From Amphiscolops sp. MND2022 (lineage: Eukaryota): 64,000 nt of DNA. Below are positions 30,701 to 57,700 of the stretch, piece by piece. The stretch is from contig OZ076409.1 in NCBI GenBank assembly GCA_964187785.1, forward strand, positions 31,374,001 to 31,438,000, read 5' to 3'. Position 1 is the stretch's first letter; the number at the start of each line of letters is the position of its first letter. A program made the position numbers and the translations under genes. The notes under the pieces are model-generated. The model saw nothing but the letters and a program-made list of their open reading frames with translations. It made no database searches and had not been told where the DNA came from.

Positions 30701-33700
30701 CCTTCGGCAATAGAAACAATCACTAAAGGGGAATTCAACACGGACCCCGACACCATCAACACAGAAAAACTTATCCAACTATTCAAAGACTATTATATGC
30801 CAAAACGAAACACCTACCACAGCCGAGGGGATTTCTTCTGGGCAAAACAAGAAGAAAATGAAACACCGGAAGAACACTGGCGGAAACTAGTATCATTGGA
30901 AAAGAACTGCGATTTCAAAGATATTAAACAAGAAGACCTATTAATATCAAAGTTTATCACCAGCATCACCGACAAAAAACTACGGGAAAAACTTATACGC
31001 GAAAAAACACTTGACCTAAAAACAACAATGGACCTGGTAACCCAAGACAGCTACGAAAAACGGCATCGACAATCAACGATACCACCAGCACTGGCGAAAG
31101 AAAAAGAAATAAAAGAAGAACCAATACAGAAAATACAACCACAAAACAAACAAAACCCCCAGAGAAATACCGGCGAAACATCAAAAACCAACAACTGCGG
31201 ATTCTGCGGACAAAAGAATTGGTCACCACTACACAAATGCCCGGCAAAAACGGTAGAATGCAATAACTGCCACAAAATGGGACACTTCGCAAGAGTATGC
31301 CGCAGCAAAAACAACAATACAAGAAAACAAAAGATCAATTATCTCGAAGAAACATACAATGAAGAAGACGAAAGCGAACCGGAAGAAATACAACAAATCA
31401 CACAAATTAACAGAGTATTACCGGATGAAAACGACAATTACGGGATCAAATTGAAAGTTAACGGTAGATACCAAAACTTCACCATCGACACCGGCTCTCC
31501 GGTCACAATAATGCCAAACAACCCAAAATTATACAACCCAAGAGATATCAAACCGCTCAAAGAAAGATACCAGGACGTGAACAAAAACGAAATCAAATTC
31601 CTCGGGAAAATATGGGCAGACATCGAACACAATGGAAAAACCACAAAACTACCGATATTAATCACACAAAGAGACGACATTACACCCCTATTAGGTGTAA
31701 ACTGGCTAAAACGACTACCAATTACCATTAACAAAATTTCATTGGACGAACCTACCAACCAATCAGAAAATATTTACACAAAATTCAACAAGCTATTCGA
31801 AAGCAACCATACAATCAAGAATATAGAAGTAAAGATTCAAATCAAACCAGGATGCTACCCCATACAACAAAAAGCGCGACCGGTACCATACCACCTACAG
31901 AAAGACGTGAAAAACGAACTAGACCGATTAATAAAATCCGGACACCTTGAAAGACTAGAAACAATCGAAGAAGATTGTTTCGTATCACCCGTAGTAATTA
32001 CGGTGAAAAAGGACAAAACCGTGAAAATTGCACTAGATGCACGAAAACTCAACGAAAGCTGTATAAAGAAAAGACCACACATGCCAAACATGGAGGAACT
32101 ATTAAACCAAATATCCGCCGAATTATCCAAGAATGACCACGACCCAATTTGGATATCCGTAATAGACCTCGATTACGCATACGGACAAATGAAACTAGCA
32201 CCAGAAACCAGCAGACACTGCAATTTCGCAATGACAGGCGAAACAATCAATGGATATTACCGATTCCTAAAGGGATTCTACGGTCCAGCAGATATACCAA
32301 CCATCTTTCAAGAGAAGATAGATAGAACTCTGGGACACCAAACACCAGTCTGGCTAGACGACATTATAGTCGTCACACGCGGAACAAAAGAAGAACACAC
32401 CCGAAAACTATATTCGGTACTGACCAAACTGGAAGACGAAGGATATCGGGCAAGCAAGAAAAAATCGAAGTTTTACCAAAAAGAGACGATATGGCTTGGA
32501 CACACGATATCACAAGACGGAATTAGACCAAACAAAGAGAAAACAGACGCAATAAACAAGCTAGAACCACCAACAAACACCAAGACATTAAAGTCATTCC
32601 TCGGAGCAATACAGTATTTTGCAAAATTCATACCGAACCTATCCGAAAAAACAGATAACATGAGACAACTACTCAAGAAGGGAACAAAGTGGGAATGGAC
32701 CACCGAACGAAATTCGGACTTCAACAAAATAGAAAACGAACTAACAACACTGCCCTGCCTTGCACATTACAACGGAAATAAAGAAAATATTGTAACGACC
32801 GACGCCTGCAAAACCGGCTTAGGGATAGCGCTATGGCAAAAACAAGGGAATGGAGAATTAAAACCAATAGCGTACGCCAGCCGCTACCTAAATGATGCAG
32901 AAAAGAAATATTCCATCGGCGAATTAGAGTTACTAGCCGTCGTTTGGGGTTTAGAAAGGTTCCGATTTTATCTGTACGGAAAACAAGTCCAACTATTTTC
33001 GGACCACCAAGCACTAGAACCTCTTTTAAAACGGAACAAAATGAATAAACAATACAGTGCACGGCTAACGAGATGGCTAGACAGACTAAACCACTTCGAC
33101 ATCTGTCTAAAACATACCGCCGGAAAAGAAATCAAATTCACCGATTTTATTAGCCGAAATCCAACCGAAAATCCAGAACCGGAAGAAAATTACGAAGAAG
33201 AATTTGTCATTAACGCCATCGCGCAACTAATTACGGTAAACGCCCGCATAGGACGGATTTTCAACCAATCAAATCTAATGAACACGGATAATGAAACAAA
33301 CATGCTTGGTACGCGCTCGCTAATTGACACGCGGCGTCGACAAACAAACAATAGCCATACCCACTTCAATTACCGCATAGAACAGCACTCCGCTGAAATT
33401 GATAATTCAGAAATGAATAACAACGACAACAACGCACGCTTCTTCCGAATGGACGGCCAATTACGTTACCATTGGGGAGCAGATGATGAAATTATGAACA
33501 TCATCAACAGAAGAGAAAAATCACCCGAAACTACGAATCTAGTAAAGAGAAGAATCGAACTCGCAAGGCCAGGCGCAATGAGGCCACAATGGAACAAGAA
33601 CTTGGGTAGAGAAATCTACATACCAAGAAGACCGGAGGAAGACGAGAGGAGAGAGATAAAGCGCATCGACATACAACTGAAAAGAAAAGAAAGGGAATCC

Positions 33701-36700
33701 CACATTGGCGGAGGCTATTTCCAAAACTTCGGAGATGAAATACCACAAAGGCAGCCACAAGAACAACAACAACCAACCAACAACGAGACAAATAGAGATA
33801 CGGAATCTACCACCTCCAACAACTCCGAAGACGCGGTGGCGACACACGAGCCCGGAGCCTATCCAGCAATACCGGTCCAAGAGTATAGAGACGGACCAAT
33901 AGAGGAAATTGCTGTTCACTATGTGAGAATCAACCGCATAGTTGAACAAAAAGCAAAAAGGAACAAACAACAAGAGGACAACATCAGATCAGCCGAGCTG
34001 GATTTTATGCTGGATCTGGAGACCCTAATCAAAGAAACGGTTGCCGACCCAGACCTCATCGAACTCAATTGCTGCATAGAGGACAATAACATGGAGCAGA
34101 TCCCACAGAACTACAAAACAGTGGCCAAAAAACTAACACACCGGTGGGGCATCATAATGGTCGACGACCGCATCATAATACCGAAGTCATTACGATACGC
34201 AGCCCTAAACGCCCTACATTTTGGACACCCCGGCATCAACAAGATGTGCAACGATGCGGCCATATTCTGGTGGCCGAACATGCGGGAAGATATTGAGAAA
34301 AAGTCGAAGACATGCTCAGCCTGCCTGAATGCCGGTAAGAATCTAAAATTCCAATTACCAACGACCGAGAAAACTAAGATCGAACCACCGGAAAAACCGG
34401 GAGAAGAGATTCAAATAGATTTCACCGGAAATCTACATAACAAGAAACTAACCTCCCACCCTTTTATACTAGTTGCGGTCGACAAAAACAGCCGCTGGCC
34501 GGTGGCAAAAATATGCAAAAATACAAACCACGAAACCGTAATTTCATTCCTGAATGAATACATAAATGTATACGGCGTACCAAAACGAATAAAATCAGAC
34601 AGAGGCGGCGCGTTTATATCCAAAGAATATAAAGAGTTTTGCAGGTCGCAAAACATTGACCGTAACTACGGCACAGCCAACCTACATACTGGCACCGGAT
34701 TGGTCGAACGAACCATCCAATCACTGAAGAACCTAATATTAGCCAACCTTGAAGATGACCAAAACTTACGCGAAAGCGTAAATAGAGCACTATACGTCCT
34801 ACGTTTCACGGTACACTCAGAAACTAAGAAAACCCCCTTTGAATCCCACTTTGGACGCGAACCGAGAACTAAACTACTAAACCTGAAAAACTCTGTTTTA
34901 GTGGACTCCAAAGACCTCTCAGTCTATATCACCCGGAATTCAACCGGAGAAATAACCGACCACCTGGTCATGTCAAAGAAAAAGACGGTGGAGCCCAAGT
35001 TCAGACGGGGCATGACATTCTCACAGACAAAGAAACCGACTAGTTCGGTAAGTACAAACAAATTCCAATATCCTTTCAAATTTTACGAAAAAAACTACAA
35101 GAAAGGATCACTGGAAAGCAAATTCAAAAAAAAAATCCAAACGGCCGTATCAGGAACCAAACATACGGTCACTACCGACAAGAACAAAATACTACACCGA
35201 AAACTAATCTCTAACCCACTACCTTTTCAGCAAGCAACTACAGCACCGATGAAACGAATGAACACCCGCAATAACACAGCTGACCAACCAACATGCTCAA
35301 AAACACTGGATACAACAAACAACAACGGAGCCCCTTGTATCTACAGCCGAAAAGAACCACCCAAACCCACAAGCCACGAAAGAAGTGAAGACTGGATAAA
35401 AAGAAGGGACCCACCAAGAAACAATAAAGGGCAATTTACATCCCCCAATAAAAACATGGAAACCGATCTGAACCTGAGCATCATATCGGATGACGAATTT
35501 GATTGTTATAACAAATCAGAAGGGAAGCCAATTCAGACAAACCCAGACGACGAACTGCAACTGCTCCCAAAAGAAAACAATTTAACCCCGGAACAAGGTA
35601 GATATAAAAAGAAAAACCAAACAAAACCGAAAGAACCGGTCAGAAGATCAAATAGATTACCCTTTGCAAAACAAACCGAAAAATTAGGCGGAGTACCGTA
35701 CCACACAAATAATAATCAGAAAAAATTAACCTATAATGACAATTTATTACAGGAAACAACAACGGAGACAACGGAGAGAAATGAAGAAGGAAACAACCGT
35801 CCAATGCGGAAAGACGAAGAAGAAATCCGTACAATACGGCCATACAAGATGCCACAACAAACTTTCACCGGACCACTCCGGAGGAGGGGGAATGTGACAT
35901 CATATCAACACCATGACCTTCAAACCCACCGCAACATACGGCATTAGACAGACAGACGTATTTACCAACAAACTCTAATTACTGTCAATTTATGTTGTAC
36001 TACATACATACCATTATTATAGTTTGAGATACTGCTGAATAGTCACTATAAAGATATTAGTCTATTTTCTAGCCTACCCATCTGTTTTTACATTAGAGAT
36101 TGAGAATACAACAATGGTAATGTCGACCTTAATTGAGAATCATAACGTCGAAAATTTGAGAATTTTTCAGCCATGAATCGATTTTCTCATCGAACACTCT
36201 CATTTCTGTGATAAAAAAAGATTAATAAAATTAATTTCAAAAATTTGTAGGATTTGAATGTGAGCGAGAACCCGAATTTGACAATGCCTCCAAAGCCTGC
36301 TACGGATGGCATGATTGATCCAAAAGCAGCTATCTTTTATAACATCGATTTCACAGTGGAAGGACAGCTGGCGAAACTGCGTGGGGAGCAGAAAGGCACC
36401 AGCGAGAGTGGAGGTGGCGATATGAGTCATTCTTCGTCAATGGACAACATGGGGGCTGTCAGTGGAACGTTGCGGAGACAGGGTGCGTTTTAAAAATATA
36501 TATTCTAATGTAAAATTGGGTTTAGTAAAGTGTATACTTCCTGTGCACAGGGTTTTGTCCTTCAAACGGTTGTAGTTTTTCAATAGTGGCTCGTTTTGTT
36601 TAAAATTTCATTTTGGTCATCTGTAAGTTTAGGTCGACCTATTGGACTTTGTATCAGAAACAGAACCCCTATTTGGTATTTTTCAAAAGCTTTCTCATTT

Positions 36701-39700
36701 ATATTAAATTATTTTGATATTTTTTTCCAATGAAGGCATGCTTTGAAACGATGCGTCTTTAAACTCTGTTGTAACGCAATTTTAAAACAAGGTCAATATC
36801 CAAGTGTTTGAAACCACCGGTTTCGTATTGAAATGAATGAAGAGAGTTATCAGCTTTGGTACCAACTCCAGCTGCATTGGAGTGTTTTTTTTCTGACCTG
36901 GAACATGTGCATTCTGAAATTTGGAAAAAAACTTGATCCTGAATCGTTCGAAAAGTGGAATTTTGTATTTGATTGGTGAATTTGATTCCAAATTCTAATA
37001 AGTTTTTGTTCTGGGAATTTGAAATCAAGTTTTTTTTAAATTTTAAATTTTTAACAACCCTGTTTTTCATTGCAAGTGACACTCGACATTTTTTGTCCGT
37101 TTGATGCTTGAAAACCAATGGCAAAAACCAAATCCAATCACTTCAAAAGCTGTCACCAATTCAAAATTGTTGTCAGCTAGAGAAATTTGTTTTTAGTGGC
37201 GCGAATAACGTCTAAGGAATAATGTCAAAGTTTTTTTTTTGAATAACTTTTAATATATGTTTTAACGTTTTAACATATGAGCATGACATGGCTTGGCTTT
37301 AGACGTTATTCCTGTTTTGCATTTAAACGGTATTCCGGCTCATTTTTTTCATAGTTTTCAATGTTTTTTTCTACGACCGATATTGGAAAATTAAAAACGG
37401 CGTTTATAGACATCTTAACTGACATTTGAGCTTCTTCCGAATTTTTCAAAAGTCAGGAAAACTTATACACCCCGTGCCTTTTTCCCCGACCTTTCAACGA
37501 AAATTTCAAGTTCTTAAAAACTGTCCATACGATTCGAACGAAGTTTTTTTTAGTCATTCTACATCATATTAGGGCCTATATGTAGATTGACATCAAAATA
37601 TCTTGTACTCGGATCTGAGAAATTTAGCCAAAAATGGGCAAATGACCATAAATTACGAAATTTGTTTTTCAATATTTTTATCCAATTCCGACTCCTTTAC
37701 CACACATGCGGCTCTAATTGTGATTTAAAATCAAAATCTATAGAAAGTTCATTTATTCGGAGATTCCTCACAGTCTTTTGATCCTAATGTTTTCAAATTG
37801 ACAAAAAACTAGCCTGTGAGGTCTGCTTCATCGATTTGAGAAAGGTTTTTTTTATTCGCTGAATCAGTAAATTCTGCTACGTAAAATTATGGGTTTCCTT
37901 CACGTATCACCAACCATATTGCTCATGTTGTCGAAAGCTAAATTCTTTGGTTTGATGTACAATGTGAGACACTTGTATACTTTAGGATGTTTGTTGATGT
38001 TTTCTTCATATGCAAGTTGTTCTATTATGTTTATTTCCGCGATAGCTGGAATATTATTGAAATCCGCAAGATTTCTACTTTTTTTCAGTACAATTCTTGT
38101 GATACTGAAAAATTCAGCTATTTTGTTCGGCAGTGACTATATAGGTGAGAATTAAATTTCTCAAGCTGTCGACGACAATTCAATTCTCGTGCGATGGAAC
38201 GAGCGAGTGGTAATTCTGCATTCGTACGTCGACATCGTTGAGATGAAGCGAGCGAATGTTCGTAATTATGCTTTCGTACGTCAAGTCATTGAGATGAAAC
38301 GAATGAGTGTTAAATATTCGTTCGCCGAGAGCATGCGAAACATCATCTACCCTTAGTAGTTATGTTTGCTTTATTCCAATATTGAAAGGCGGTATAAACT
38401 GGTACAGTGATCAATTGTGTGCTAAACATTGATTAACAGGAGTGTATTGGTTTTCCAGATATGATTCTCATTACAGTGCATAGACAAGCTTTTTCTGGCC
38501 ATTTTGCGGAAAGCACGACAAGAATTTGCGGAATCCATGACACGCTTACAGAATTCCAATCTCTTTGATGTTTGCGGAATCTAACATAATCTAATAGGCT
38601 ATTAATAATGAAAGATTGAAGCTGAAATAATAGTGAGCCCGGAGGAGCCTATTTTCTAATATGATCTGGTAGTATATGGCAGTGCAGCAAAAGAAAACAT
38701 CGATTTGATTGAAAAAGTTCAACGGCGAATTATTCGTGCTTTTTTTAAAAAAAATTTACTGAAAGCTTATCAACTCTTCTGATTAGGTACAAAATTCTCA
38801 CAGCATCTAAACTTTATTCATGTGATCTGTATCGTCTTTTTGCATCTTAGAGGGAACTCCCCGCTTAATATTCTCACTTAGCTAGTAATCCTCGCACGTA
38901 TGAAACTAGCAGAAAACAGCATGGCCTGAACCCATCGTTATACTGTAGAACGGTAACAAAAAAGAAATCAATTGAGTTAGTTACAATTGGTTGAAAACTT
39001 TTGACCTCATACCTTGGCATCACCAACTTAGTTACAATTGGTTGAAAACTTTTGACCTCATACCTTGGCATCACCAACTTAAGCTCCAATCAATTAAGCT
39101 CCGACTCGAAAAATAGCTGCTTTAGTTATGTGGCTGGATGCACTCAAATGAAAGAACATTTTTGTCTTCTAAGAAATGTTTTTTGAAAATATCCGGTATG
39201 ATGCACTTTTTTATACATAATTTTAAGTAGCCCTTATTGAATTAGAAAGACTCGCTAATTGGTATTTTTCTGGGCAGGGGCTCGAAGAGCCGAGTAGGCT
39301 CACTCCTTGTCCAAATTGAATGTTTATTTATTTGAATTGAAATATCATGTTCGTATTTATACAACATTCAATTAAATGAAAGTTTCTTCCCTTTTCTCTT
39401 GATTTAGAATTTGTTTTGAATTTGTTTTTGGTCTACCAGAAACTGTAATAGATGGGCACTTTACCCTAATACGTGTTTTACAATGGCTATAATAGTTGTT
39501 TCAAGAAAATAGGTGATTTTCATTCGAAAATCGAAAAAGTTCCTCAATACATAACAGCATCCTCGGGTAGTCTGGGGCAAATATTTAGCACTAAGTTTCA
39601 CAAAACAAATTTCGTTGTGTATACTGTGGCTGTTTACTTTGATCTATGAATTCAGTCTAGCATTTTTGGTTGAAGGTTCCACTGCGGGATCAGCAAACAG

Positions 39701-42700
39701 CAGAAAGCAGAGAATTCAAAAACGCAAAGAGGAAGAAGCGGAAAGATCAGACGCTGCTGTGCTTCTTACGGCTATGAGGAAACAAGCTGAAGAATCAAAG
39801 AATGCGGACGTAGAGCAAACTAATGAACTTGTCGCGGGGTTCGACGAAACTGTCACTAAGTGCGTGTACACCGCCATGTTTATCATTTTTAGAAGTCGGA
39901 AAAAAAATCGACTACTTATGCAATGCGTAGTGTAGTATGTGCATATGTGGCACACCTAAAGTGAGTTCATTCACCCGAGAACTGTCCTATTTGAGTCAAA
40001 TAACTTGTGAAGTCATCCGACTATATGAACTAATTATCTACTCAAATAAAAGAACCTGTCAATCTTATCAGACTACGCGTCGGCGAAACTAATTATCTAC
40101 TTAAATAAAAGAACCTGTCAATCGTATCAGACTACCCGTCGGCGAAAGTAATTATCTACTCAAATAAAAACGTCAGTCTTATCAGACTATTCATCAGTGA
40201 ACGTAATTATCTACTCAATGTAGAGTAACAACATTTTTTCTCAGACAATCTGTCAGCTAATTTAATCATCCACGAAAAATAAAAACAATAACTCTGTCAA
40301 GTTTCTCGAGAAGCTTCTCATCCAGGATAAATATCTGGAGATGTTAAAGAACATTGACCGTGTTTGAGTATAATAGCATTCTGTCAAGTAGTCTCATTAT
40401 CTATTAGCGTTGTGGGACTGTTAGTTTTCCCAGACAATCAGTCAGCTAATGTAATTTCTTATGAAAGGGATTATCATGAACCCTCTCAACTTTCACAGTG
40501 GGTTTCCATGGAGTAATTATCTAGAGATTCTAAAGAACATTGATCCTTTTCAAACTAATGCTATTTTATACAAAAATCTTATCTATTTGTTTTGGTATTC
40601 TGTCAGTTTTCCCGGACATCATGTCAACTAGAGTAATTTTCGATGAAAGAAGAGAAAACTTCTCAGAGCTTGAAAAAATGTTTTCCTGTTGGTACATGTA
40701 CATACAAAACGAATTAGATAAATAAATGTTAAATATCTGCTGAAACATGAATATAAAATTGGATTAGAGTAGAAAAAATTAAATATCTAAAGGTTTAGTA
40801 TGGATTCCAACCTCTAGCACTTTTCTTTTGGGTTAGAAACTCGAAAGTCCTCTTTTCTTAAGTTCATAAGTGCATATTTCTCTCTGGTCTACTCTGAATG
40901 CCCTGTTTGTAGATATTTCTTCCTTTGCCTGCAATACACTCCTCATTTTCATCATTGGGTTGTCGTTCTTCAAAGTACTTTTATTGATTCCTTTACAACT
41001 GATCGTGACTGTTTCCGATTTCTCATCATAGCAACAGTATGTTTTCGAACACAAAGCAATCATTTCAGTGCATCTGAATTCTTCCTGGAAAAGACCCGGT
41101 GTTCTTTAATCATGTTTCTTGTGGACTACCCAACAGTTTCGAGGGAAGAAGTTGAAAGGTCCATCGGCTTTGAATTCTCTATCACTGTCATTCGATCGGC
41201 ACGTATGTCAGAACAGCTCCATCTCGGGTTTGATAATATCCTCGATATTTTCTTCAGTTATTGCCATATATAGACTGTCAGTGTCCATCTCAATTAATTC
41301 AAACTTGGAGTCATCGCAAAACACTTTGAAAACGTTGTAGTATAACACCAACATGATTAATTTGGCATTATGAAGATTGCAAAATCCGACAATGATGGGT
41401 TTCTTGTGCTCGCTCTTCCCATCTCACCTTCGAAAAACATACAATTGTTAACCAAACGGTCCACTTCTGATCCGAGAACAAACTTTGTTTTTGTATGTCT
41501 GGATCGATCAATAATCTGATGACCATATGATGAATTAGCTATCAGTTTCATAGTTTCTGCCACCACAGAAGAATCTTTGTTTTCATCTCCTTTTCTTCGG
41601 GCTTCAACCACTGGAGAAACAAATCCTTCGAATGTCTTTTGAGGCTTGTACTGCAGAAACCAATGAATTTTCTTGACAATTAATCCTTTCTCGAGATAAA
41701 ACTTCCGGAGAGGAGTAAAAATTGGACCACGTTCTAATTTGAAACTCGAAATCAGCATTCTCGTGGGTTTTTTCAAAAGAGTATTAATCTGACCGAAGCA
41801 TTTCATATAGTTTCCAAAATCACCCTTGGAAATTTCACAATTTTTGAAAATTGGAGGAAAATCAGCAAAGTCTTTTCTCATTTCAACAGGAACTTCCAGG
41901 GTACAATCCTCAACCACAAAGAGTTGCTCTTTTCGAATTCTTCGTAGAAATCCTTCTTCTGATAAAGGAGGAATGAATGGATGATTTTTCTTCATAAAAT
42001 TTTTAGCTCCCTGCTGGTTTGACTTGACCATTTTCCACCAATGACGCTCCCAAATTTCAACAATGTTCAGACCCTGACTTTTTAGAAATCGTTTCCGAAT
42101 ATAACCCGCGAAGGACTACTGGAAGTTATAGGGAACATTGTACCCATCGACATTCAAATCGAGTCGCACGGAACCAAATTTTACATAAGATTTCGACTGC
42201 AACCGCAAGATTTGTTCAAATGTTTGGGCAGAATGCCAGATTTCTTGGATTTAATTTCTCAAGTGCTGTTGAAAGTCATTTTTTCAATCTTTGTTCTATC
42301 TCCGGTATATTAGACATTTCAAAAATTCCTGGCTGTAAGAAGTTAGAGACCCGAACATTCTGCATCTGCTGCTAATCTTCTGACAATTTGTGATTTATCG
42401 ATTTACAGTCGAAATCTTACATGTAAAATTTGGTTTCGTGCGACTCGATTTGAATGTCGATGGGTACAATGTTCCCTATAACTTCCAGTAGTCCTTCGCG
42501 GGTTATATTCGGGAACGATTTCTAAAAAGTCAGGGTCTGAACATTGTTGAAATTTGGGAGTCTCATTGGTGGAAAATGGTCAAGTCAAACAAGCAGGGAG
42601 CTAAAAATTTTATGAAGAAAAATCATCCATTCATTCCTCCTTTATCAGAAGAAGGATTTCTACGAAGAATTCGAAAAGAGCAACTCTTTGTGGTTGAAGA

Positions 42701-45700
42701 TTGTACCCTGGAAGTTCCTGTTGAAATGCGAAAAGACATTGCTGATTTTCCTCCAATTTTCAAAAATTGTGAAATTTCCAGGGATGATATTGGAAACTAT
42801 ATGAAATGCTTCGGTCAAATTAATATTCTTTTGAGAATGCTGATTTCGAGTTTCAAATTAGAACATGGTCCAATTTTTACTCCTCTCCGGAAGTTTTACC
42901 TCGAGAAAGGATTAATTGTCAAGAAAATTCATTGGTTTCTGCAGTACAAGCCTCAAAAGACATTCGAAGGATTTGTTTCTCCAGTGGTTGGAGCCCGAAG
43001 AAAAGGAGATGAAAACAAAGATTCTTCCGTGGTGGCAGAAACTATGAAACTGATAGCTAATTCATCATATGGTCATCAGATTATTGATCGATCCAGACAT
43101 ACAAACACAAAGTTTGTTCTCGGATCAGAAGTGGACCGTTTGGTTAACAATTGTATGTTTTTCGAAGGTGAGATGGGAAGAGCGAGCACAAGAAACGCAT
43201 CATTGTCGGATTTTGCAATCTTCATAATGCCAAATTAATCATGTTGGTGTTATACTACAACGTTTTCAAAGTGTTTTGCGATGACTCCAAGTTTGAATTA
43301 ATTGAGATGGACACTGACAGTCTATATATGGCAATAACTGAAGAAAATATCGAGGATATTATCAAACCCGAGATGGAGCTGTTCTGACATACGTGCCGAT
43401 CGAATGACTGCAGTGATAGAGAATTCAAAGCCGATGGACCTTTCAACTTCTTCCCTCGAAACTGTTGGGTAGTCCACAAGAAACATGATTAAAGAACACC
43501 GGGTCTTTTCCAGGAAGAATTCAGATGCACTGAAATGATTGCTTTGTGTTCGAAAACATACTGTTGCTATGATGAGAAATCGGAAACAGTCACGATCAGT
43601 TGTAAAGAAATCAATAAAAGTACTCTGAAGAACGACAACCCAATGATGAAAATGAGGAGTGTATTGCAGGCAAAGGAAGAAATATCTACAAACAGGGCAT
43701 TCAGAGTAGACCAGAGAGAAATATGTACTTATGAACATAGAAATGAGGACTTTCGTGTTTCTATCCCAAAAGAAAAGTGCCAGAGGATGGAATCCATACT
43801 AAACCTTTAGATATTCAATTTTTTCTACTCTAATCCAATTTTATATTCATGTTCCAGCAGATATTTAACATTTATTTATCAAATTCGTTTTGTATGTACA
43901 TGTACCAACAGGAAAACATTTTTTCAAGCTCTGAGAAGTTTTCTCTTCTTTCATCGAAAATTACTCTAGTTGACATGATGTCTGGGAAAACTGACAGAAT
44001 ACCAAAACTCAAATAGATAAGATTTTTGTATAAAATAGAATTAGTTTGAAAAGGATCAATGTTCTTTAACATCTCTAGATAATTACTCCATGGAAACCCA
44101 CTGTGAAAGTTGAGAGGGTTCATGATAATCCCTTTCATAAAAAATTACATTAGCTGACTGATTGTCTGGGAAAACTAACCGTCCCAGAACTCTAATAGAT
44201 AATGAGACTACTTGACAGGATGCTATTATATTCAAACAAGGTCAATGTTCTTTAACATCTCCAGATATTTATCCGGGATGAGAAGCTTCTCGAGAAACTT
44301 GACAGAGATATTGTTTTTATTTTTCGTGGAAATCCTTCTTCTGATAAAGGAGGAATGAATGGATGATTTTTCTTCATAAAATTTTTTAGCTCCCTGCTTG
44401 TTTGACTTGACCATTTTCCACCAATGACTCTCCCAAAATTCAACAATAATCAGACCCTGACTTTTTAGAAATCGTCTCCGGATATAACCCGCGAAGGACT
44501 ACTGGAAGTTATAGGGAACATTGTACCCATCGACATTCAAATCGAGTCGCACGGAATCAAATTTTACATGTAAGATTTCGACAGTAAATCGATAAATCAC
44601 AAATTGTCAGAAGATTAGCAGCAGATGCAGAATGTTCGGGTCTCTAACTTCTTACAGCCAGGAATTTTTGAAATGTCTAATATACCGGAGATAGAACAAA
44701 GATTGAAAAAATGACTTTCAACAGCACTTGAGAAATTAAATCCAAGAAATCTGGCATTCTGCCCAAACATTTGAACAAATCTTGCGGTTGCAGTCGAAAT
44801 CTTATGTAAAGTTTGGTTCCGTGCGACTCGATTTGAATGTCGATGGGTACAATGTTCCCTATAACTTCCAGTAGTCCTTCGCGGGTTATATTCGGAAACG
44901 ATTTCTAAAAAGTCAGGGTCTGAACATTGTTGAAATTTGGGAGTGTCATTGGTGGAAAATAGTCAAGTCAAACCAGCAGGGAGCTAAAAATTTTATGAAG
45001 AAAAATCATCCATTGATTCCTCCTTTATCAGAAGAAGGATTTCTACGAAGAATTCGAAAAGAGCAACTCTTTGTGGTTGAAGATTGTACCCTGGAAGTTC
45101 CTGTTGAAATGCGAAAAGACATTGCTGATTTTCCTCCAATTTTCAAAAATTGTGAAATTTCCAGGGATGATATTGGAAACTATATGAAATGCTTCGGTCA
45201 GATTAATAATCTTTTGAGAATGCTGATTTCGAGTTTCAAATTAGAACATGGTCCAATTTTTACTCCTCTCCGGAAGTTTTATCTCGAGAAAGGATTAATT
45301 GTCAAGAAAATTCATTGGTTTCTGCAGTACAAGCCTCAAAAGACATTCGAAGGATTTGTTTCTCCAGTGGTTGAAGCCCGAAGCAAAGGAGATGAAAACA
45401 AAGATTCTTCCGTGGTGGCAGAAACTATGAAACTGATAGCTAATTCACCATATGGTCATCAGATTATTGATCGATCCAGACATACAAACACAAAGTTTGT
45501 TCTCGGATCAGATGTGGACCGTTTGGTTAACAATTGTATGTTTTGAAGATTCCACCATTTACCCAAAGACATTTTCGAAGTTGAGACGCGAAGACTTAAG
45601 ATCGAGCACAAGGAACTTATCCTTGTCGGATTTTTCATTTTTCACTTTGCCAAATTAATCATGTTGGTGTTATACTACAACTTTTTCAAAGTGTTTTGCG

Positions 45701-48700
45701 ATCACTCCAAGTTTGAATTCAGATTGACACTGACAGTCTGTATATGGCAATAACCGAAAAAATATCGAGGATATTATCAAACCCCAGATGAAGCTGTTGT
45801 GACAAACGTGCCGAGCGAATGACAGTGATAGAGAATTCAAAGCCGGTGGGCCTTTCAACTTCTTCCCTCGAAGCTGTTGCGTAGTCCACAGGAAACATGA
45901 TCAAAGAACACCCGGTCTTTTCAAGGAAGAATTCAGATGCACTGAAATGATTGCTTTGTGTTCGAAAACACTGTTGCTATGATGAGAAATCGGAAACAGT
46001 CACGATCAGTTGTAAAGGAATCAATAAAAGTACTCTGAAGAACGACAACCCAATGATGAAAATGAGGAGTGTATTGCAGGCAAAGGAAGAAAAATCTACA
46101 AACAGGGCATTCAGAGTAGACCAGAGAGAAATATGTACTTATGAACATAGAAATGAGGACTTTCGTGTTTCTATCCCAAAAGAAAAGTGCCAGAGGATGG
46201 AATCCATACTAAACCTTTAGATATTCAATTTTTTCTACTCTAATCCAATTTTATATTGATGTTCCAGCAGATATTTAACATTTATTTATCTAATTCGTTT
46301 TGTATGTACATGTACCAACAGGAAAACATTTTTTCAAGCTCTGAGAAGTTTTCTCTTCTTTCATCGAAAATTACTCTAAAACTGACAGAATACCAAAACT
46401 CAAATAGATAACAAGATTTTTGTATAAAATAGCATTAGTTTGAAAAGGATCAATGTTCTTTAACATCTCTAGATAATTACTCCATGGAAACCCACTGTGA
46501 AAGTTGAGAGGGTTCATGATAATCCCTTTCATAAGAAATTACATTAGCTGACTGATTGTCTGGGAAAACTAACCGTCCCAGAACTCTAATAGATAATGAG
46601 ACTACATGACAGGATGCTATTATATTCAAACAAGGTCAATGTTCTTTAACATCTCCAGATATTTATCCTGGATGAGAAGCTTCTCGAGAAACTTGACAGA
46701 GTTATTGTTTTTATTTTTTTGTGGATGATTAAATTAGCTGTTAGATTGTCTGAGAAAAAATGTTGTTACTCCACATTGAGTAGATAATTACTTTCACTGA
46801 TGAATAGTCTGATAAGATTGACGTTTTTATTTGAGTAGATAATTACTTTCGCCGACGGGTAGTCTGATAAGATTGACAGGTTCTTTTATTTGACTAGATT
46901 GATGCTTTCGCCGACAGGTAGTCTGATAAGATTGACAGGTTCTTTCATTTGAATAGATAATTAGTTCATATAGTCGGATGACCTTTACATGTTATTTGAC
47001 TCAAATATGACAGTTCGCGGGTGAATGAACTCCTCAGTTTAGGTATGCCACATCTGCATATACTACACTACTGCAATGGTACCTTTTTTCTTCCGATCTT
47101 TCAGTGAAAGTTCCAAATTTCTCAAACTGTCCGTACGATTTTGATAAAATTGGCACAGTCATTCTACACCCAAAGGTGCTCCTGTGGCAGCAAGTTCGAA
47201 TGACGGATCTGAGAAAGATAGTCAGAATTAGTCCAAAAATGACGAAAAAGTGCCATTTTTGGACTTTGATTTTCTCGAAACTGTCCATACAATTCGAACG
47301 AAATTTTTACAGTCATTCTACACCATTTTAGGGTCCTGTATGTGCAATGGTATCAAAATCGTATGGCTGGGATCGGAGAAACATAGCCTAGATTAGTCAA
47401 AAAGTTACCAAATGACAAAGTACGTAATTTGATTTTCAATATTTTGATCCGTTTCCGACTCCTTCATCGCACATGACTCTGGTTAAACTAGAAAATTGAA
47501 TTTTGCCTTCGTGTCCACTCTCTAATTCGTCAAGTTGCAAGCACCTATGGATTGAATTATTTTTGTGCGCTGTTGTTTTTAGCTATTTTTAGATCCATCC
47601 ATTGAATGTTGTTCCTTACAGTACTGCCTATTGATTCACTATTTACCATTGACTGGTTGGTTTAGACCAAAGAAATGGAACCAAAACTTGAAAGGCCCCA
47701 TGATGGACTTCACCAAGTACTTTGAAGCTGATATCGGAGAAGTGGAGGGTGTTCACATCTGGTACATTTCCAACTTCTGTCCTGTCATGCTCGGTAAGTC
47801 ATATGCCCCTCTATGAGAAACCAGAACCATAGATTAATAAATTGACTCGTTCGTTTTCAAATAATTAACACTCCTTCAAAATGAACAATCTATCGTATGA
47901 ATTTGGATTAAAGTAGGTGGCTGTAATGATGATAATTCTTGTGGCCGTTTCATGCCAAGTTTTTTTAGATGAGACAGAGAATGGGAAGTTCTACCAAAAA
48001 GACTGTTACATCATTTTACAGGTACAGTTGTTTGAATGGTAGCATTGCACAGGATCTGGTTGAATTGGGATACATTGCACTTCTTTGTTTAGAACCTTTG
48101 GAATGGATCTGAGTTTCTCCACAACATCTATTTCTGGATTGGTAAAGATGCTGAAGTTAGTTCATTTAAGACTCCCTCATTTGATGATGGAATTTCTTGC
48201 TTGCGCACTTTGCGAAACAACCAGACTCATGGTTTGAAACTCCTAAGCTTCAGTTTTTCAGCAAATGCTTTGTTTTTGACAGCAAGACAAGCAAACGTGT
48301 TGTGCCATTCATGCTGTCAATTTGCGCAACATGACAGGAGCCTCTTGTCGAACTGTGCGTGAAGATCAGGACGAGGAGAGCGAGGAATTCCTCACTGTAT
48401 TCGCATCTACTTTCGAAATTCTAGACGGCGGCTATGGGGAGAGTGGATTCCATCACTTCGAGCAGCAAGCTGCAAATCAGTATCTCTATTGTCTTAACAC
48501 TCAATCCAACAGAATTGGAATGCACCTGGTACGTTTTTTTCTTTCAATCACTGACATCTTAACAGCTTCCCCATTTACAATAGAGCTCTAAAGTGAAGCA
48601 ATGTCAACTTTAGAAGTCAACTTTCACTGAAACTTTTCTATCATTGAAGTTACTTCCCACCGGCAAATTTTAGGGGTGAGTCATGTCAGGACAAATCAAC

Positions 48701-51700
48701 ATGCTCAGGAGACTTAAAGGCACATATGATTATTATTATTTCTGCGATAGCAGGAAGAATATAAGTAGTAATAGCAGGTAGGGGGTGTTAAATGATGATT
48801 TGGGCTCCCAACCGAAATTATTCTATGTCAGAACCCTATCTCACTTTTACTGCCCACAACCAAAATTATTCTAAGTCAGAAAATTATCTCACATTTAGGG
48901 CTCCCAACCGAAGTCAGAAAATAAATCATTTTGGTCATACTGAGCGGACTGTATGCCAATTGTCATGAATGTTTACTGATGCAAATTAATGATGATAAAC
49001 TTTCGAGCACAGCGACGTATACCCATTTTAAACTTGAACTGAAAGAAAGCAATTTTATTCATGTGTTAATGCACTTCCATATAATTCACCATGAAATTCT
49101 AACCTTTCGTCCTCTGACATTAGCAGCAATGGGAATATAAGTAATTTTCTGAAAACGAGAGATTTCTGATTCCTGAAACATACATCTAGAAATTGTGCTT
49201 TCTGCATGGAACTTTCCCATGGCACCTTCCAAAGGAATTTCCATGTTTATCGTCGTTGATACTTGTGTTAAGAGAAATCGTCATTATAACTCGAATTCGT
49301 TTCCGGAACAGTTAACACGCGATATGACTTCAGTGTTTTGCGAAATACCGAGTAATTATTGGCTGCTCTTGTTCTCAACTGAAGAATCCGAAATCTACTG
49401 TGATGTCTACGAGAAGGGCAATTACTCAAGTTCACCGAGGAGTCTTCTCAAATTACAGGAAATACTCTCCATATCTCACAAATGCCATTTCATTGCAAGA
49501 TTCGCAAGAGGCCAGTAATGTTTCACTGGACTAGTTTTGTGACGCCATGCCTATAAATTGTCATCATCTTCTGATGTACCTCCCACAATGCACTAACGCA
49601 GAAACAATATTCAAGCAAACCAATTCACAAATTTTGTCCAACGAACAATTGGCAAATGTCGACTTCTCACAGTTTCGTATCCAGCGAACTTCCTGAACGT
49701 ACTATTTTGCCCTAGATCTCTCTTCGTAGGAAGCGAGAGAGTGGAGAACCTGATGACTCGGAAAACTGAAATTTGGGTTGCAGTTTCAAGTGCATTTGGG
49801 AACTTGACTGGCACAATTCCTTGGGTGACTGTCCGATAATGAAAAGGCTTTTTACATATTCCAAAAGCTTGTGGAACGAAAAAAAAGATAGATGGTTCCT
49901 TTCAAGGATACTGTGATGTCTTACATCGAACTTTTATAAGGAGGTATCGGACGACTTTGTCTATCTGAACAAAGTAGAACATTGGATTTTGATTTGGGAG
50001 TCTCAAATGCTCAATGGATCTGCTTTGAATGTCTGAACCGTTTATTGCAACTGCACGAAGCGATCGACAACACACCAGCCCTCAACTTTTTCCCTTGAAA
50101 TGAAAATAATCGATATTTCATTTCTGTAAATTTTCAATTTGAAATCAGTTGGCTTTTTTAATAATTCAAACTTAGAAAAATCGACGTTTTCTGCGAGACA
50201 AGTTTGTGAAAAATTTATAGCAGTTAACTACTGCTTTTCTAAAAACAGCACCACCAAAAACGACTCCTTGAGAGTTTGTAGTTATATAGACGAGAATGTT
50301 GATTTGAAGGGAGTTAATGCTAAAGCACTTTTCGGAGGCAAGACAGGGCCAGGCGATAAAAAGTTGGATAGTTATCTAAGGTTTTCCAAAGTTTTGTGCC
50401 GCTTGCAATTTTCCATGATATGATGCTCATGGGTACATGCGCAGCTTCAAGTAAGTTGGCCTAGGTTACGTCTACACTCTCGGAAAGGCTCAATTTTCCA
50501 CAAGAGTGTGCTTCTAGGACATTTCTCAGGTATATCATTTTGGTTATCATATTGTTCCATCGAGAGCGATTCGATGCATTTCCATTTTAACAATCATATG
50601 TAGTCTGAATAATATTCTGTTCAGTTGCATTCTGAAGTGGAGAGATTTTAATTTGAATCAAAAGTACGCCATGTTATGAGCGGCCTTGATTTGAGCCATA
50701 CTAGTGGCTAACACAGTAACTTGTCGTTCAACAATCGAGGCGATCAAGAGAATCAAATTGATCACGGAAATTGATTAGTTCCGAACCTTGAAAGAATAAT
50801 ATTCGACCAAACAGAGAACAAAAACCACCCTACACTTGGTTGTAATTCCCCAGTGGAAAGGTCTTTGGTGTTGGTCTTTTGACAAGATTCATACTTCTTG
50901 CAGTTTTCAAGTTCTGTGTTCTTTTCCTTACTCTTTGTGAAAACGACAACAATGTCTCATCCGGGTTTCTAGCGATGAAAATCTTCATTGTTTCATTTCT
51001 GTGGTGGGACCAGCTGGTTCTGGCAAGAAACAATTGATTGAAAGTATGATTTGCAACCAGGATAAAATTTTTATCGCCCTGACTTGGACAAAATACTGTA
51101 CTTTTATAAACATTATCAGCAACCGTATAGACAACTTGAAGCTGATTGCCTTCCCAACAAAGTTGAGTTGCAATTGATTCAAGGCTTGGAGTGGAATGCG
51201 GCTGCGCGATGAGAAATCTCGAAGCAACGTACTCTGGTCGTTATAGACGACCTGTATGACGAAGCTGGAAGTTTTTGGACCTAGATGCCACTGCAGGAGA
51301 ATCTTTTCCAACAATCCAAAAACCAAAAGACGGTTGATTTGAATGTGGCTCAAATAGTTCTTTTCAATAGTCCAAGAGATTCTGAACAAATTGGAATTAT
51401 GGGACGTCAACTGGGCGAGCGTTCTACTCTATTAAAGATCCGTAAAAGAGCGACTCAAGAAGTATTTGGTAATTTAGTGATATTTGAATGTGAAGAGCAG
51501 CAGGAACCTCAGATACTGCTCACATTGCTCTGGCGACGAATCACCCCGTTTTTATTGCGCGAGAGGCGAACTTTTTATCAATGATGAATTTACAAAATTA
51601 CTACAAAAAGTTGCAAAAAAACTGTTTTCCTGGCACTTGGGATAGTGAATCTAGAGAAAGTTTGTTCGAAACGTCGAGTTGCCTTGAAACGAAAACGCCA

Positions 51701-54700
51701 AGTATTGGGCTCAGAGAGGTATGCGTCTGTTGAAATTGATTTTGCCCTTCGTACTAATTCATTTGGAAACCTTCCATGGAATCGAACAGTACCCTAAATT
51801 CAATCACTCCTGAAGAGTACATTTAGAAGAGTCCACTTACGAAGAGTAAAATACAAAAGAATTCGCCATACGCACGTGAGAGGCAACAACAATTTTACTT
51901 TCAAAGTTTGGCGAACCTTCTCAAATTAATTTTAATCCCATTGAAGATAAAACTTCAAAACTATCAATACAGCCAAGGAGTTACCACAAGCCTATAGTTG
52001 CACAGTTGAACTTGAATTCACTATACCATTCGAGAGACTCAAGCACATCGAACAACGTGGAGACAAAATAATCGAACAAAAACATATCTGATCAAGGTTT
52101 GTCAAATTTACTAGAATCTGGCGTGACAAGTGGAAAGTTGAATGGTCGAGACAAATTTTTAAAAAGATTGAAGATTCCGACCGAACTACGACTGCCGAAA
52201 CCAATCAAACTAATAATTAAGATCAGCAAGACACGGGAGTAAGTGTTGAAGAGTTTCCCCCAGCAATGCAAGTCAATACGAAACAATTGCCAAAAATTCT
52301 CACCTTGGTTGAAGTTCTCAGAATTCCACAATTTCTGTTGGCAAACACTTACGCGAGGCACACTACCAATCAAAATCAGCATCAAATTCGCTTAGCGAGC
52401 GGAGCGTCTCCCCCCAAAAAAGTAAAAACTCGAGACAGGGTAACAGCAGTCAGTGGTTGACAAATTTTTAGAATGAAAAGGTGGTTTTGTGGATCTTGTA
52501 AAACTCCTCTGGGTAGAGCATCCAAATCATCTCCCTCACTTTGGTGTCATATCTGCGGTTGTTTACATTTCAAATGCAGCGACCTCGAGAACAGCAGGGA
52601 AGTTAACAACTTTTTGTGCTATAAGTGTGATCGAAGCAGAATTCTACTCAATGACGAAACTGATCGAGATTATGCTACTTCCTTCACGAAAATTCAGGAA
52701 ATTTATAGAAATCCTCGGAGCAAAGAGGCTTTCTTTAAGCAGACGCAACTTGGTAACAACATCCCACTGCTCTCCAAAAATTGTAGATCGATACCTAAAT
52801 TCGAGCGAAACGTACACAAACTTCAAACTAACCAGTAAACGTTTCTTGCGGTAGAAAGTTGTCAGTTTAGGCTAGATTAAATTTGGTCAATTGATGCAGA
52901 AACTCGCAGCTAACAACAGCGGAATCAAGTATCTGTTTGTGGCAGTGGACGCCCTAAGCCGTTATTTATGGGAAGAGCCTTTCAAAGTTATAACATCTCA
53001 AGCTTGTGAGGAAGCTCTGATGACGATCATTGCCAAGAACGGAAAACCATCAGTGCCCAAAATATGCAGTGCAAAGCATCAGCCTGAGACGATATGGGTA
53101 GACAAGGGGCATTTTTCTGGAGAGTTTGCCAGTTTTTGTCTGTCAAAACATTTTGTAATTTGTTCCAGCAAAAGCAAAACAAAGTCTGCTCTGACGGAAA
53201 GGTTTCGATCTCTTGAATACTTGATCTTCCAGTACATATACTTACATTGATGAAATTGATCAGTTTGTATCAATCATCAACTGTCGCGTGAACCGCATGA
53301 CAACGTTGGCTTCCGATTCAATATCTAATAAAGACGTGCCCTACTCAGTATCGCTTTGTCACATCAATATTCTGCGGCAACCAAAATTCGATATTGGTCA
53401 TCAAGTTCGAATTCAACGCAAATTTTTACATTTCATCGGGGCTAAAAATTTCACTTGCAAGAGTTGTTCACTTGCAACCCTCCCACTTACACTGTCAAGG
53501 ATAGAAATAACTAAAGTACTCAGGGCAAGTTTTATCAACTCGAACTCGTAAAGTTTGTGGTAGCATCCTAATCTGAAACGAAATGGAGACATGAACGGAG
53601 CAAGCAGCCGAGGCGCCAATTGTTTACAATGCTAATTTTCATGACGCTGTTACCAATAGCAATTTCCTTGCCTGGCGATTGGCAAGTGCCACTGGTTGAA
53701 ATTGTTTGGTCGGCAATGATGTAAAATGATACTGTTGGAGAGTTTACAGTCTCGAAAAAAGTGGCGGCATTGCCAGTTGAAAAAAATCCGAGGCATCATC
53801 AACACGGTTTGATTTCGATGGCGGCCCCTTCTGCATTACCCAATTACCAAATTACAGTGAACCTGTAACGCTTTATCTCAAGCCCGGTTGTTACCCATTG
53901 GTGGACTCAATAATGAAAGCCATCATGAAAGCTGCTGTGGGCAAGAAAGAAAGCAAATTGAGTGAGAATCCCGGACGAATGACTCTATGCTGTCTTGGAA
54001 AACTGATACTGTAACTATAAGGTTGAATGTCAAGTCGAGCGGCGTTGATGAAAACGAGGCATTTAAAACTATGACAGATAATTAAAAACATTTTGGTCAC
54101 CGATGTAGTCATCGATTGTCAATCACAAAATCGTCACGAAAATGAAGCTCCTTGCCGAACTTCTTCAGGAATTGCCGGCCGAAGTGTGAAACAAGTCGGA
54201 TGTTGGCCCGTCGATCTGAATACCGGTAGTCAGACAATCTTTCTCTATTGTGATCTTGTACAAAACGAGCCGCTGGGCAACACGGAGACGGCAATCCTGA
54301 GATCCATCATCCCGAGAGTGAGTATCACTTTGGCGCAAACTACGAGTGAGGTGAACCACAAGAGCTTCACGAACTTGCAGTTAAACCGAAATGGCAAACT
54401 CCATTTTCAGTCCATCAGTCGAACTCTCGCCATTGACATCGGCTAAAAGCTGAGCCGCCTTTTTGAGCCGCGGACGCACCAATATTAAACCGCGTCATTC
54501 GGTCTTCAACTTCTGAAAGGTTCAGTTTGTTGTCATTTTCAAAATTGGCCTGCTTTCACAATGGATGCTCACTATGATTCACAAATTAAATCAGTCGGTT
54601 TTGACAGGTAAAAAAGAAGCCCAATCGAAAACTTTCAGGTAGTGTCGCGAGAAAGACTGTTGCAAAAAGAATGAGTAAAAGCTTGCCGGCGGGCGTCGCA

Positions 54701-57700
54701 CTTCGCCCGGGCGGCGGCGAGCGGAAACCCGAGGCGGCGAATGAAAGCGTGGGCGGCGGCAAACGGCCAGGGACATGATTAGTCAATAGGAAACGAAATA
54801 GTTCGATCAGCATTTCACGGAATACAGCCGCCAAAAGGAGTTGGTCCAATATTTTGTCTGAAATTTCCATTCCAATTACAAACTCAGCAAGCTGACGTCC
54901 GTCAACAATTTATTTGTTGGCAGTACAGCCGCCTTTGCGAGGCCTGTGACACAGTGCGTTGGACTTTTCGCGAAGCCAGGTGTTATGATCAACTTTGAAG
55001 GCGCCTACGATCAAGAAGTTTTTCCACGCGTGGTTTGCCGTGGACCTCAATCGGACTTCTTTGTTGCCGCGGAAGCAAAAAGCCTAACCATGTGATTTTG
55101 ACGTTTTCTCGAACCACACATTTCACACTTTTCTCACGTGCCGAACTTTACAGCTGAATGAAAAATGAGTTCTCAGCAGTTATTGTCACTTGCATTCTCA
55201 TTTTGCGGAAACTGAACTTTCCAACTGACACAGATAACAAAGACTCATTGGCCGAATGCCAGAGTTATCACTATTTAACCGAATTCCGTGGAAAAGAGCG
55301 AATGTTCAACAAGCTCGCGGCCAGCTTTGCAAAAACCAAAGAGTGCAAAGTTCAGCTCTGTGGTGCTCTTCACCTTGACTTTTTGGGACTTTGACCCAAC
55401 GCAGACTATAGCACTGGGATTTTTTAAGACCAACGACGTGACCAATGACGATTTAAAACCAACGACGTGACCAATGACGATTTAAGACCAATGACAATTT
55501 AATAAGCTTTATAAGCTGAAGCTGTTGCTTCCACTAACTGACACACTATGTAACTTCTACTGCCACTTGGTATAGAGGTCAATTAAGATTTTTTCTTAAG
55601 GTCTGCCAAACAGAAGGACGCGGCTTCGAGTCTCACCCTTGACCAAATGTTTTTTGTGCATGTTATTTCGGCTTTTTGAGACTTTTTTCGCAAATTTTTA
55701 AATGTCTCCTAAGGCCTTTCTTCAATTTCTTATATTTTGCAACAGAATGGAAATTCACAAAATTACAAAGGCCCCCCTTTCACATTTTTCGGCACTATGC
55801 GACTTACCGCGAACTTCAAAATAACTTTCGAAAATTTTTTTTCTCTTTCGGGTACTGTGGAGGAGAATACTTGACACTTTGAACTGTTGATTTTTTCAAT
55901 CATAGATATGGCGCCGACTTGGGCCGTTCCCGGCTTTTTACTTCCAGTTGCAACTCTACATGCGTCCATATCGATTTCCAAACAACACTCTTCTCCATTT
56001 GTAAAGCACTGATGAGGAGGCCCAGATTTTTTTACTGTAAAATGCTTCCAGTTGTTAAAAAAGCCTCTCTCTTAAGTTTAAGCAAAAGTTTCATCATTCA
56101 AGCTGGACAAAATTGTTCCATAATGAAGAATCTTTTTGGGACAGAGCCCATTCGGCGTCTTTGTGCATGGTAAGAAATCCTTTTCCGGAGTACTCCACTC
56201 ACTGAAACTCATTCGCCTATCAAACGTTCAACTTGCAGCGGGTTGAATTTGAGCTGGGAAATGGGGTTCTGCTCGTAGGAACTCCCCTGGCACAAACAAT
56301 GTGAGGTTTATTGACAATACGATAACAGCTCTCAGCTTCAAGGGGAAAACAACGGAATCAAAAGTGAGGAATACGAGGACACCCATTTTTTCCTTGTCTT
56401 TGACTTCAACAGAGGCTAGCGAAAATTTTACACTTTCCCGGACTCACCGGTTCCACCCGAAGTCACTATAGATTCAGCATTAACAAGAAAAACAGGCACT
56501 ACGATGGATAGTGCAATTCTAAAACACATGATTCTCCGCAAATCCATACTGAGCGTAGCCTTTGCGGTAATTTGGTCAGCAGACAATTTGAATTTGCAAC
56601 CAGTAACTACTGAACTGACCACAAACTTTCTTGCGAGTGAACGATTGGTTTGGTTTCAAATTGTAAATACTTCACCCCGAAATTCACATAGGTCGAACTG
56701 GTTGCTTCTCGGCGCTACTATAGCGCAGGAACAAAAGAAAATGCAGGTGTTCGTCTGGCACTGTTTGGTTCAAGCAGCGTCTGTCTACTCAACGATTTTC
56801 AATCGCCTGAATCTTTTGCATGGAAAAATGGGATATCGACAAGTTGCACTCAAACTTCAAAATGCTAGTTCCAGAATGAGTGGTCTGTATTGTATTTTCG
56901 ATTCACTATATAGCAAAGGAACCCTACGAATTGTCTCAAAGAGTTGAAAACCCGAAATAATGTAGTGAAATTGAAATAATCCATTTCATAAGTGATGAAT
57001 ACAAAACTTTATTCAGATATACTGTTTTTAGTATAAATAAACTTTCATAGGAACCTTCTTCTCACTTAGATACGAATAAGTCACGCAATGTGTGGGTCGT
57101 TTTTATCGCTTCTGAGAGGATAGTCTACAATGTGTATTTTACAACGACTTTGATTGTCAAATTTTCTCGAGGGAAGCTGCTCATTGGCTTCAATACAATC
57201 GTAGCCACTTGAATCTTGGGCCTCGTGGTTGACAAACGGTGGTCAAAATCTCACAGTCGGTAGATTCGTCTATTGTCGGACCAGCGGAACCTGCTAGAAT
57301 TTTTTGAAAGTTTTGCAATTGGGCCAAATTATGAAATTGAGAAAACTATCCTCAGAGAGAGATGAAGGTGTTTTGTAATGACCATAGGCGATAGAATTGA
57401 TTCCATCATCCAGGATGTTCCGCGTGTCGTCACAGGAGCTGAGAGCTATTTTGTGCACTGAGTTTTACCACAATTTGATGATTGAAGGAACGAAGTTGAG
57501 TCATTCTCTTAGTGATATTCTTTTTCGATAGAAAGCCTTGTTTGAGAATATCGTTGTGAAGAGTCTTTTCAATCATTTTGGAGACGCCCTTTGCACACTG
57601 CATTTTACCTCCAATAGAATATATACTATAAAATTTGGACGTCAAATTTTGCCACGCGAATAATTTTGCTCTGCAGTTCATTTGTCATTGTCAAGGGTTT

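Follow-up and report, generated by a model that had tools for sequence, protein, structure and literature searches.

A gene-dead, palindromic Polinton remnant, probably built in stages, in an intron of Amphiscolops sp.

A 64,000-nt stretch of Amphiscolops sp. MND2022 (assembly GCA_964187785.1, contig OZ076409.1, positions 31,374,001-31,438,000 of the forward strand), hereafter the window, to whose positions all coordinates refer, contains a 7.1-kb element with a mirror-image layout at 39926-47072, as delimited by self-BLAST of the window. We regard it as a gene-dead Polinton/Maverick remnant that was probably built in stages, namely integration with the aid of a helper, a 4.75-kb palindrome, and later rewriting by host replication or repair. 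An earlier note on this DNA had read the whole element as one copy-back product of an active parent, a defective-interfering (DI)-type genome integrated in trans by a helper integrase. The Polinton origin stands and integration in trans is likely, while the arms carry the marks of more than one episode.

Ends, arms and gene content

Both the Polinton ends and the true 6-bp target-site duplication (TSD) that had been proposed were borne out. The hexamer GCAATG stands on the plus strand at 39920-39925 and again at 47073-47078, and the flanks are two halves of one host repeat. In four of four empty copies of this repeat that were aligned (copies chosen from the window), the two flanks have exactly six columns in common and the hexamer position occurs once, and therefore the duplication was made by the insertion, with the length expected of a non-autonomous Polinton/Maverick. 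The termini are of the (AGT)2//(ACT)2 type that, with a 6-bp TSD, is described for vertebrate Mavericks (PMC8097293). The right end carries the full (ACT)2, the left end matches at 5/6 bases because its terminal base is changed to C, and within the window this motif was found at the two ends of the element only. The host repeat split by the element also recurs inside a 412-bp unit, present in three tandem copies at 25878-27107.

The arm copies are numbered 1 to 4 from left to right. Self-BLAST matched 39927-42670 to the reverse complement of 47071-44319 (2792 columns, 92.9% identity, 87 gap positions) and, further inward, 40269-42202 to 44330-42403 in inverted orientation (96.7%); a direct repeat of 42403-44324 and 44788-46718 (93.5%) and a short one of 41937-42197 and 44319-44582 (95.1%) were also found. 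One terminus is repeated in inverted orientation around a loop, as in a copy-back or snap-back genome. The same self-comparison reproduced the order of terminal inverted repeat (TIR), polB, spacer, polB, partial TIR, polB, spacer, polB and TIR. The inverted repeat of ~2.7 kb given in the earlier note was likewise present, but the arms are not identical, differing by 3-8% and by indels of 12, 19 and 30 bp. Similarly, the description of the element as consisting only of TIR and pieces of pPolB (the protein-primed family B polymerase gene) held for pPolB but not for the loop of 200 bp or for the start of each arm (~110 bp), which are non-pPolB.

Copy 1 (39926-42202, minus strand) begins with the left end region (39926-40781, minus strand), in which the end motif with its changed first base is followed by a 59-bp array of 3.3 units (40031-40218) and by degenerate repeats of ~190 bp that were mapped on the right-hand copy and are visible here by self-BLAST. 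Next come the broken C-terminal third of pPolB (40782-42097, minus strand), aligned to residues 970-1420 of the homologue P0005, and the non-pPolB inner end of the left arm (42098-42214, minus strand), which matches residues 49-86 of the protein P0183; the fold-back point may lie near 42214/42215. After the first copy of the loop (42203-42402, plus strand, 200 bp), copy 2 (42403-44330, plus strand) contains an arm start, a pPolB fragment (42510-43815) and a partial end region, and it is a mosaic of copy-4-like and copy-1-like sequence, with an apparently converted tract at 43130-43511 (plus strand, outer bounds 43106-43625) that matches copy 1 and not copy 4. Junction 2, between the end region and reversed pPolB, lies in an 8-bp microhomeology at 44323-44330 (7/8 bases, chance about 0.006), which confirms the jump within microhomology formerly placed at ~44328. 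Copy 3 (44331-44587, minus strand), an inverted inner arm of only 260 bp, carries 7 substitutions of its own among the 248 sites compared, and it is followed by the second loop copy (44588-44787, minus strand), inverted and identical to the first at 200/200 positions. Finally, copy 4 (44788-47072) has an inner part (44788-46225, plus strand) with an arm start and a pPolB fragment (44893-46225), where junction 1, a putative homologous switch, would lie between 44975 and 45080. It ends with the right end region (46226-47072, plus strand), which contains a 59-bp array of 3.3 units (46776-46963), degenerate repeats of ~186-190 bp and the terminal ACTACT. Subtracting the extra 2.4 kb leaves a palindrome of 4.75 kb. 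The arms can pair as a hairpin, by a fold of copy 3, loop and inner copy 4, a result that follows from the repeat and is not independent support. Copies 2 and 3 have in common a 2-bp insertion (42414-42423 and 44563-44572) that turns a near-palindrome into a perfect 10-bp palindrome, which suggests quasi-palindrome correction.

The longest frame had 108 homologues among 857 candidates (the best, P0001, 74% identical), and the full-length homologues carry PF03175. The fragments were not recognisable by Pfam alone (best E 0.024); their identity rests on the homologue search and alignment. Although the pPolB origin is clear, the whole gene of an autonomous Polinton is not there: each long arm covers no more than residues 970-1420 of P0005 (1420 residues in all), a C-terminal piece of ~450 residues, with stops and frameshifts. 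Moreover, six-frame peptides of 39926-47072 were compared with L004 and L005, two near-complete Mavericks (from a scan in which 6 loci were confirmed of 427 candidate stretches) that have genes for integrase, ATPase and protease. The peptides matched only the pPolB of these loci, and no integrase, packaging ATPase, protease or capsid was found among the matches. The copy-1 fragments are 48-57% identical to the pPolB of L004. The codon that aligns with P0005 residue 1277 is a stop in all three long copies; it lies inside the patch described below, across the deepest split of 8.4%, so the stop is probably older than that split. Because both the stop and the truncation are shared, the template from which the copies descend had already lost its function by roughly the divergence seen at the outer ends. 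A dead template together with a clean 6-bp TSD argues for integration as a unit by a helper integrase acting in trans, as had been supposed.

The non-pPolB content amounts to a 310-bp piece, and the end region beyond the pPolB stop to 850 bp. The 3' end of pPolB points inward in L004 and L005, whereas in the element it faces the terminus, 850 bp away. The 850-bp end is thus at most a candidate for the parent's TIR and for its natural end next to pPolB. In another locus, L006, an ACTACT-type motif at 1630-1650, ~140 bp past the pPolB stop, might be a right terminus with an outward pPolB; the contig holds one end only.

A search of 1.84 billion proteins gave two hits. One of them, P0183, aligns first with the arm start and next with the loop, which is their order at copies 2 and 3, with about 31 extra bases between the two, 12 of which are retained only on the side of copies 1 and 4. 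The simplest reading of this protein record is that the passage from loop to copy 2 would be the native order, with the fold-back near 42214; alternatively, the relative may itself be a hairpin. The other hit, P0184, is a repetitive protein without a convincing match and was rejected. Comparison of the loop with 157 peptides from L004, L005, L006, L008, P0179 and P0180 gave matches at noise level only, and so did its comparison with the 199-aa terminal open reading frame (ORF) of L004, of which it was considered as a possible piece. Its open frame had no protein-atlas hit at 0.9 or above. With regard to the ends, a 26-letter pattern had no match in metagenome contigs; a 17-letter pattern matched three viral contigs, which had nothing else in common with the element and were put down to chance. 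When viral contigs were scanned for loci by protein, 2 and 6 candidate stretches came up and none was confirmed.

Divergence strata and the mosaic arm

Different parts of the arms have different depths. The outer ends differ at 26/342 sites (7.6%) and the inner arms at 34/1229 (2.8%), while copies 2 and 4, the two rightward copies, differ at 16/1231 (1.3%). The excess at the outer ends over the inner arms is significant (p = 1.6e-4; 14/237 and p = 0.026 without the 59-bp array). Within the patch, defined as alignment columns 770-1210 (0.44 kb), copies 1 and 2 differ at 1/401 sites (0.2%) and copy 4 stands apart at 33/394 (8.4%), a depth like that of the outer ends (p = 0.79).

Outside the patch, 27 sites set copy 1 apart from the others, against 9 for copy 2 and 6 for copy 4 (p = 1e-4), and deletions of 12 bp and 1 bp are common to copies 2 and 4 and not in copy 1. 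On the other hand, deletions of 30 bp and 7 bp are common to copies 1 and 2 and not in copy 4. In a two-breakpoint test of copy 2 on 65 informative sites, 0/1000 permutations reached the observed statistic. The tract common to copies 1 and 2 looks like a recent arm-to-arm conversion. A palindrome formed in place would suit the older outer ends; the patch, which is just as old, could come from an old arm or from a donor at another genomic site.

Selection acting on separate active lineages was considered as the source of the divergence and was rejected on the ratios of nonsynonymous to synonymous change (pN/pS), which were 0.72 for copies 1 and 2 (7 synonymous, 20 nonsynonymous) and 1.11 for copies 1 and 4 (10 and 44); neither value departs from neutrality. 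Agreement with the outgroup in the patch is about the same for copies 1 and 4 (8 and 7 codons), which means that both versions have decayed.

Near the loop the relationships change again. Here a 2-bp indel and one substitution pair copy 4 with copy 1 and likewise copy 3 with copy 2, and copy 4 switches from copy-1-like to copy-2-like sequence between 44975 and 45080, on two informative sites and one more that is ambiguous. A copy 4 joined like copy 1 near the loop and siding with copy 2 past ~45080 is the product expected of a homologous switch to the inverted left arm. Beside junction 2, the 7 private changes of copy 3 compare with 1.5 expected (p about 0.001).

Proposed history and alternatives

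These strata can be arranged in four steps. First, a deletion derivative joining a piece of a non-pPolB gene, the C-terminal third of an already broken pPolB and the 850-bp end would have been integrated in trans, and its outer ends would since have diverged by about 8%. Second, the last template common to the inner 2 kb of both arms dates to about 2.8% divergence; this date is read from the alignment, and the mechanism may have been a fold-back made in place or the overwriting of an older palindrome, with about equal probability. Third, a fork may have stalled while copying the right arm and moved, through homology, onto the inverted left arm at a point about 190-300 bp away from the loop. 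It would then have read across the loop and into the right arm for 260 bp before rejoining the end region at the 7/8 microhomology. This would have added 2.4 kb at about 1.3%, in the geometry known as DUP-TRP/INV-DUP (an inverted triplication between two duplications). Fourth, a tract of 0.4-0.5 kb of copy 2 was made to match copy 1, probably by repair of a mismatched hairpin bubble.

The published two-step model of DUP-TRP/INV-DUP, which combines break-induced replication (BIR) at inverted repeats with microhomology-mediated BIR (MMBIR), involves a homology junction in inverted repeats and a microhomology junction with raised point mutation nearby (PMC4352052, PMC11293582). Junction 2 has both of the latter features (7/8 bases; 7 private changes in 248 sites), and the putative junction 1 would lie inside inverted repeats, copy 4 changing sides there at two informative sites with a third ambiguous.

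Several points weigh against this history. Junction 1 depends on the two sites just mentioned, and alignment column 159 either groups copies 4 and 2 or reflects a change in copy 1 alone. The loop (0/200 changes) and the copy-1-like part of copy 4 belong to the same proposed tract as copy 3, but neither has an excess of changes. The patch requires two events at one interval. The borders of the segments compared by Fisher tests were picked after inspection of the data, and the outer-end excess is the weaker without the 59-bp array. Finally, that the later steps took place on the chromosome is drawn only from the diverged ends and the changed terminal base.

The best of the alternatives is that the 7.1-kb form was built off the chromosome, by template switching among diverged members of a palindromic family during helper-driven replication, and was integrated as it now stands. 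The mosaic ancestry and the divergent copy 3 fit several donors, and the TSD is perfect. However, a fresh panhandle template would be expected to have matching ends, and here 26 of 342 sites differ between them and one terminal base is changed; moreover, the sister copies 2 and 4 and the identical loops need no outside donor, a local duplication being sufficient. We consider this origin unlikely. Slightly less probable still is a variant of the four steps in which the 2.4 kb arose by tandem duplication at the microhomology, with a jump back to 41940, and the second loop was flipped separately by a crossover between the short arms. It yields the same final order with the same microhomology, and the 70 bp where the two models differ hold no informative site, but it takes two events, confines the crossover to about 70 bp and does not by itself explain the private changes of copy 3.

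The strict copy-back origin of the earlier note, in which a single episode from an active parent gave a DI genome that was integrated in trans and has only decayed since, accounts well for the one-end palindromic anatomy, the clean TSD and the microhomology at the internal jump, and the template switch there is supported by 7/8 bases. Non-autonomy and Polinton descent, which it also entails, agree with the truncated dead pPolB, the end motif and the TSD. On the other hand, one episode predicts four equally related copies and is not supported, since the copies are unequally related (27, 9 and 6 odd sites), copy 2 is a mosaic, the derived deletions that the copies share contradict one another in their pairing, and divergence is greater at the outer ends than in the inner arms. 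That the copies have in common both the stop and a pPolB missing its first two thirds also means that the template was already a dead derivative. The model is largely contradicted and we think it improbable; a palindrome that had already diverged and was rearranged later gives a better account of the internal partial end and the second loop. In addition, the term 'defective-interfering' presupposes replication and interference, and the element is known here as a genomic sequence. An assembly artefact of fold-back chimeric reads or mis-joined repeats is the least probable of all: long inverted repeats are hard to assemble, but a fold-back read would not give arms that differ by 3-8% with phylogenetically structured differences and indels up to 30 bp, and the flanks are halves of one host repeat between consecutive exons.

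Returning to the history in four steps, its 4.75-kb precursor may have been a member of a mobile family of palindromic, gene-dead Polinton satellites, that is, one-end snap-back genomes copied and integrated by a helper, whose arms then became hotspots for conversion and inverted triplication. We offer this extension tentatively, as possible but somewhat short of an even chance. If it is true, the locus is a dated record of satellite remodelling through four time layers.

The element lies in an intron of a flightless-1 homolog, whose nearest labelled protein comes from the acoel Convolutriloba macropyga. It sits between two consecutive exons that are collinear on both sides, at 39678-39866 (plus strand, residues 452-514 of P0181) and 47664-47798 (plus strand, residues 512-557). 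The gene covers about 59 kb (3548-62612), with several large mobile elements in its introns. At ~9186-20489 there is an AT-rich (about 27% GC) element of Polinton/adintovirus type, with integrase- and pPolB-like ORFs and, by eye, ATPase- and capsid-like ORFs; it has ACTACT at its right end, its left end is apparently missing, and a 60-bp segment is exactly duplicated at its borders (9126-9185 and 20490-20549). A decayed Maverick at ~50100-58200 has pieces that match five L004 genes in the same order and shares no convincing DNA with the ends of the 7.1-kb element. These two were considered as an evident parent and rejected, as neither gave a convincing DNA match to the end region or loop (best outside match E 0.045). 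An LTR (long terminal repeat) retrotransposon-like element at 30193-36113, of Ty3/gypsy type by eye, has an open frame of 1840 aa and is likely very recent because its 221-bp terminal repeats are 99.5% identical.

Significance and comparison with known systems

Replication of Polintons by protein priming on panhandle intermediates has been proposed (as related in PMC4046053) rather than shown. Should palindromic derivatives of one end prove to move as families, this replication would be recorded directly in their fold-back junctions and in the identity of their arms, and such families would be the Polinton counterpart of defective viral genomes. At the level of titles and abstract openings, we found no palindromic one-end or non-autonomous Polinton described in the literature, which does not establish its absence from print. 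The present case carries a caution as well: arms can be rewritten after insertion, so that arm identity and TIR divergence are no simple insertion date and no proof of a copy-back origin. As a single decayed locus, it deserves moderate weight.

One end repeated in inverted orientation is familiar from the hairpin or palindromic plasmids of yeast pGKL1, from palindromic amplicons of phi29 and from copy-back DI genomes. Those are free replicons with identical arms, whereas the arms here are diverged and mosaic.

Compared with the Polintons represented by P0001, P0005, L004 and L005, the element has pPolB, the end type and the 6-bp TSD in common. It differs from them in its length of 7.1 kb, in a truncated and broken pPolB and in having no integrase, ATPase, protease or capsid match, and its pPolB 3' end is directed to the terminus, unlike that of L004 and L005. 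Among vertebrate Mavericks, outward-pointing modules are reported for the cane toad only (PMC8097293). Butterfly polintons are described with gene-bearing TIRs of ~2 kb, in which hexon and adenain are duplicated (bioRxiv 10.1101/2025.02.07.637071); they resemble our element in having coding sequence in the inverted repeats, but are full-length and recently active, unlike this dead remnant. In Caenorhabditis elegans, Polinton TIRs are described as driving rearrangements (PMC11414722).

Galileo of Drosophila mojavensis has extended TIRs, proposed to have formed in place by repair from the other end, and chimeric copies produced by conversion; the same paper mentions reports of expanded inverted repeats in Polintons (PMC3573991). 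The recruitment of internal sequence into the inverted repeat and the conversion between copies are similar. However, Galileo is a cut-and-paste transposon of the P superfamily, whereas the present element is nearly all arm and has a second, nested inversion.

Finally, the likeness to DUP-TRP/INV-DUP rearrangements lies in a microhomology junction with extra point changes beside it and in a putative other junction inside inverted repeats. The published examples, as those reports present them, are human loci with repeats 10-318 kb apart. The locus described here is a compact natural case of the inverted-triplication geometry within a transposon, on a kilobase scale, inside one invertebrate element and with the element's own arms as the inverted repeats.

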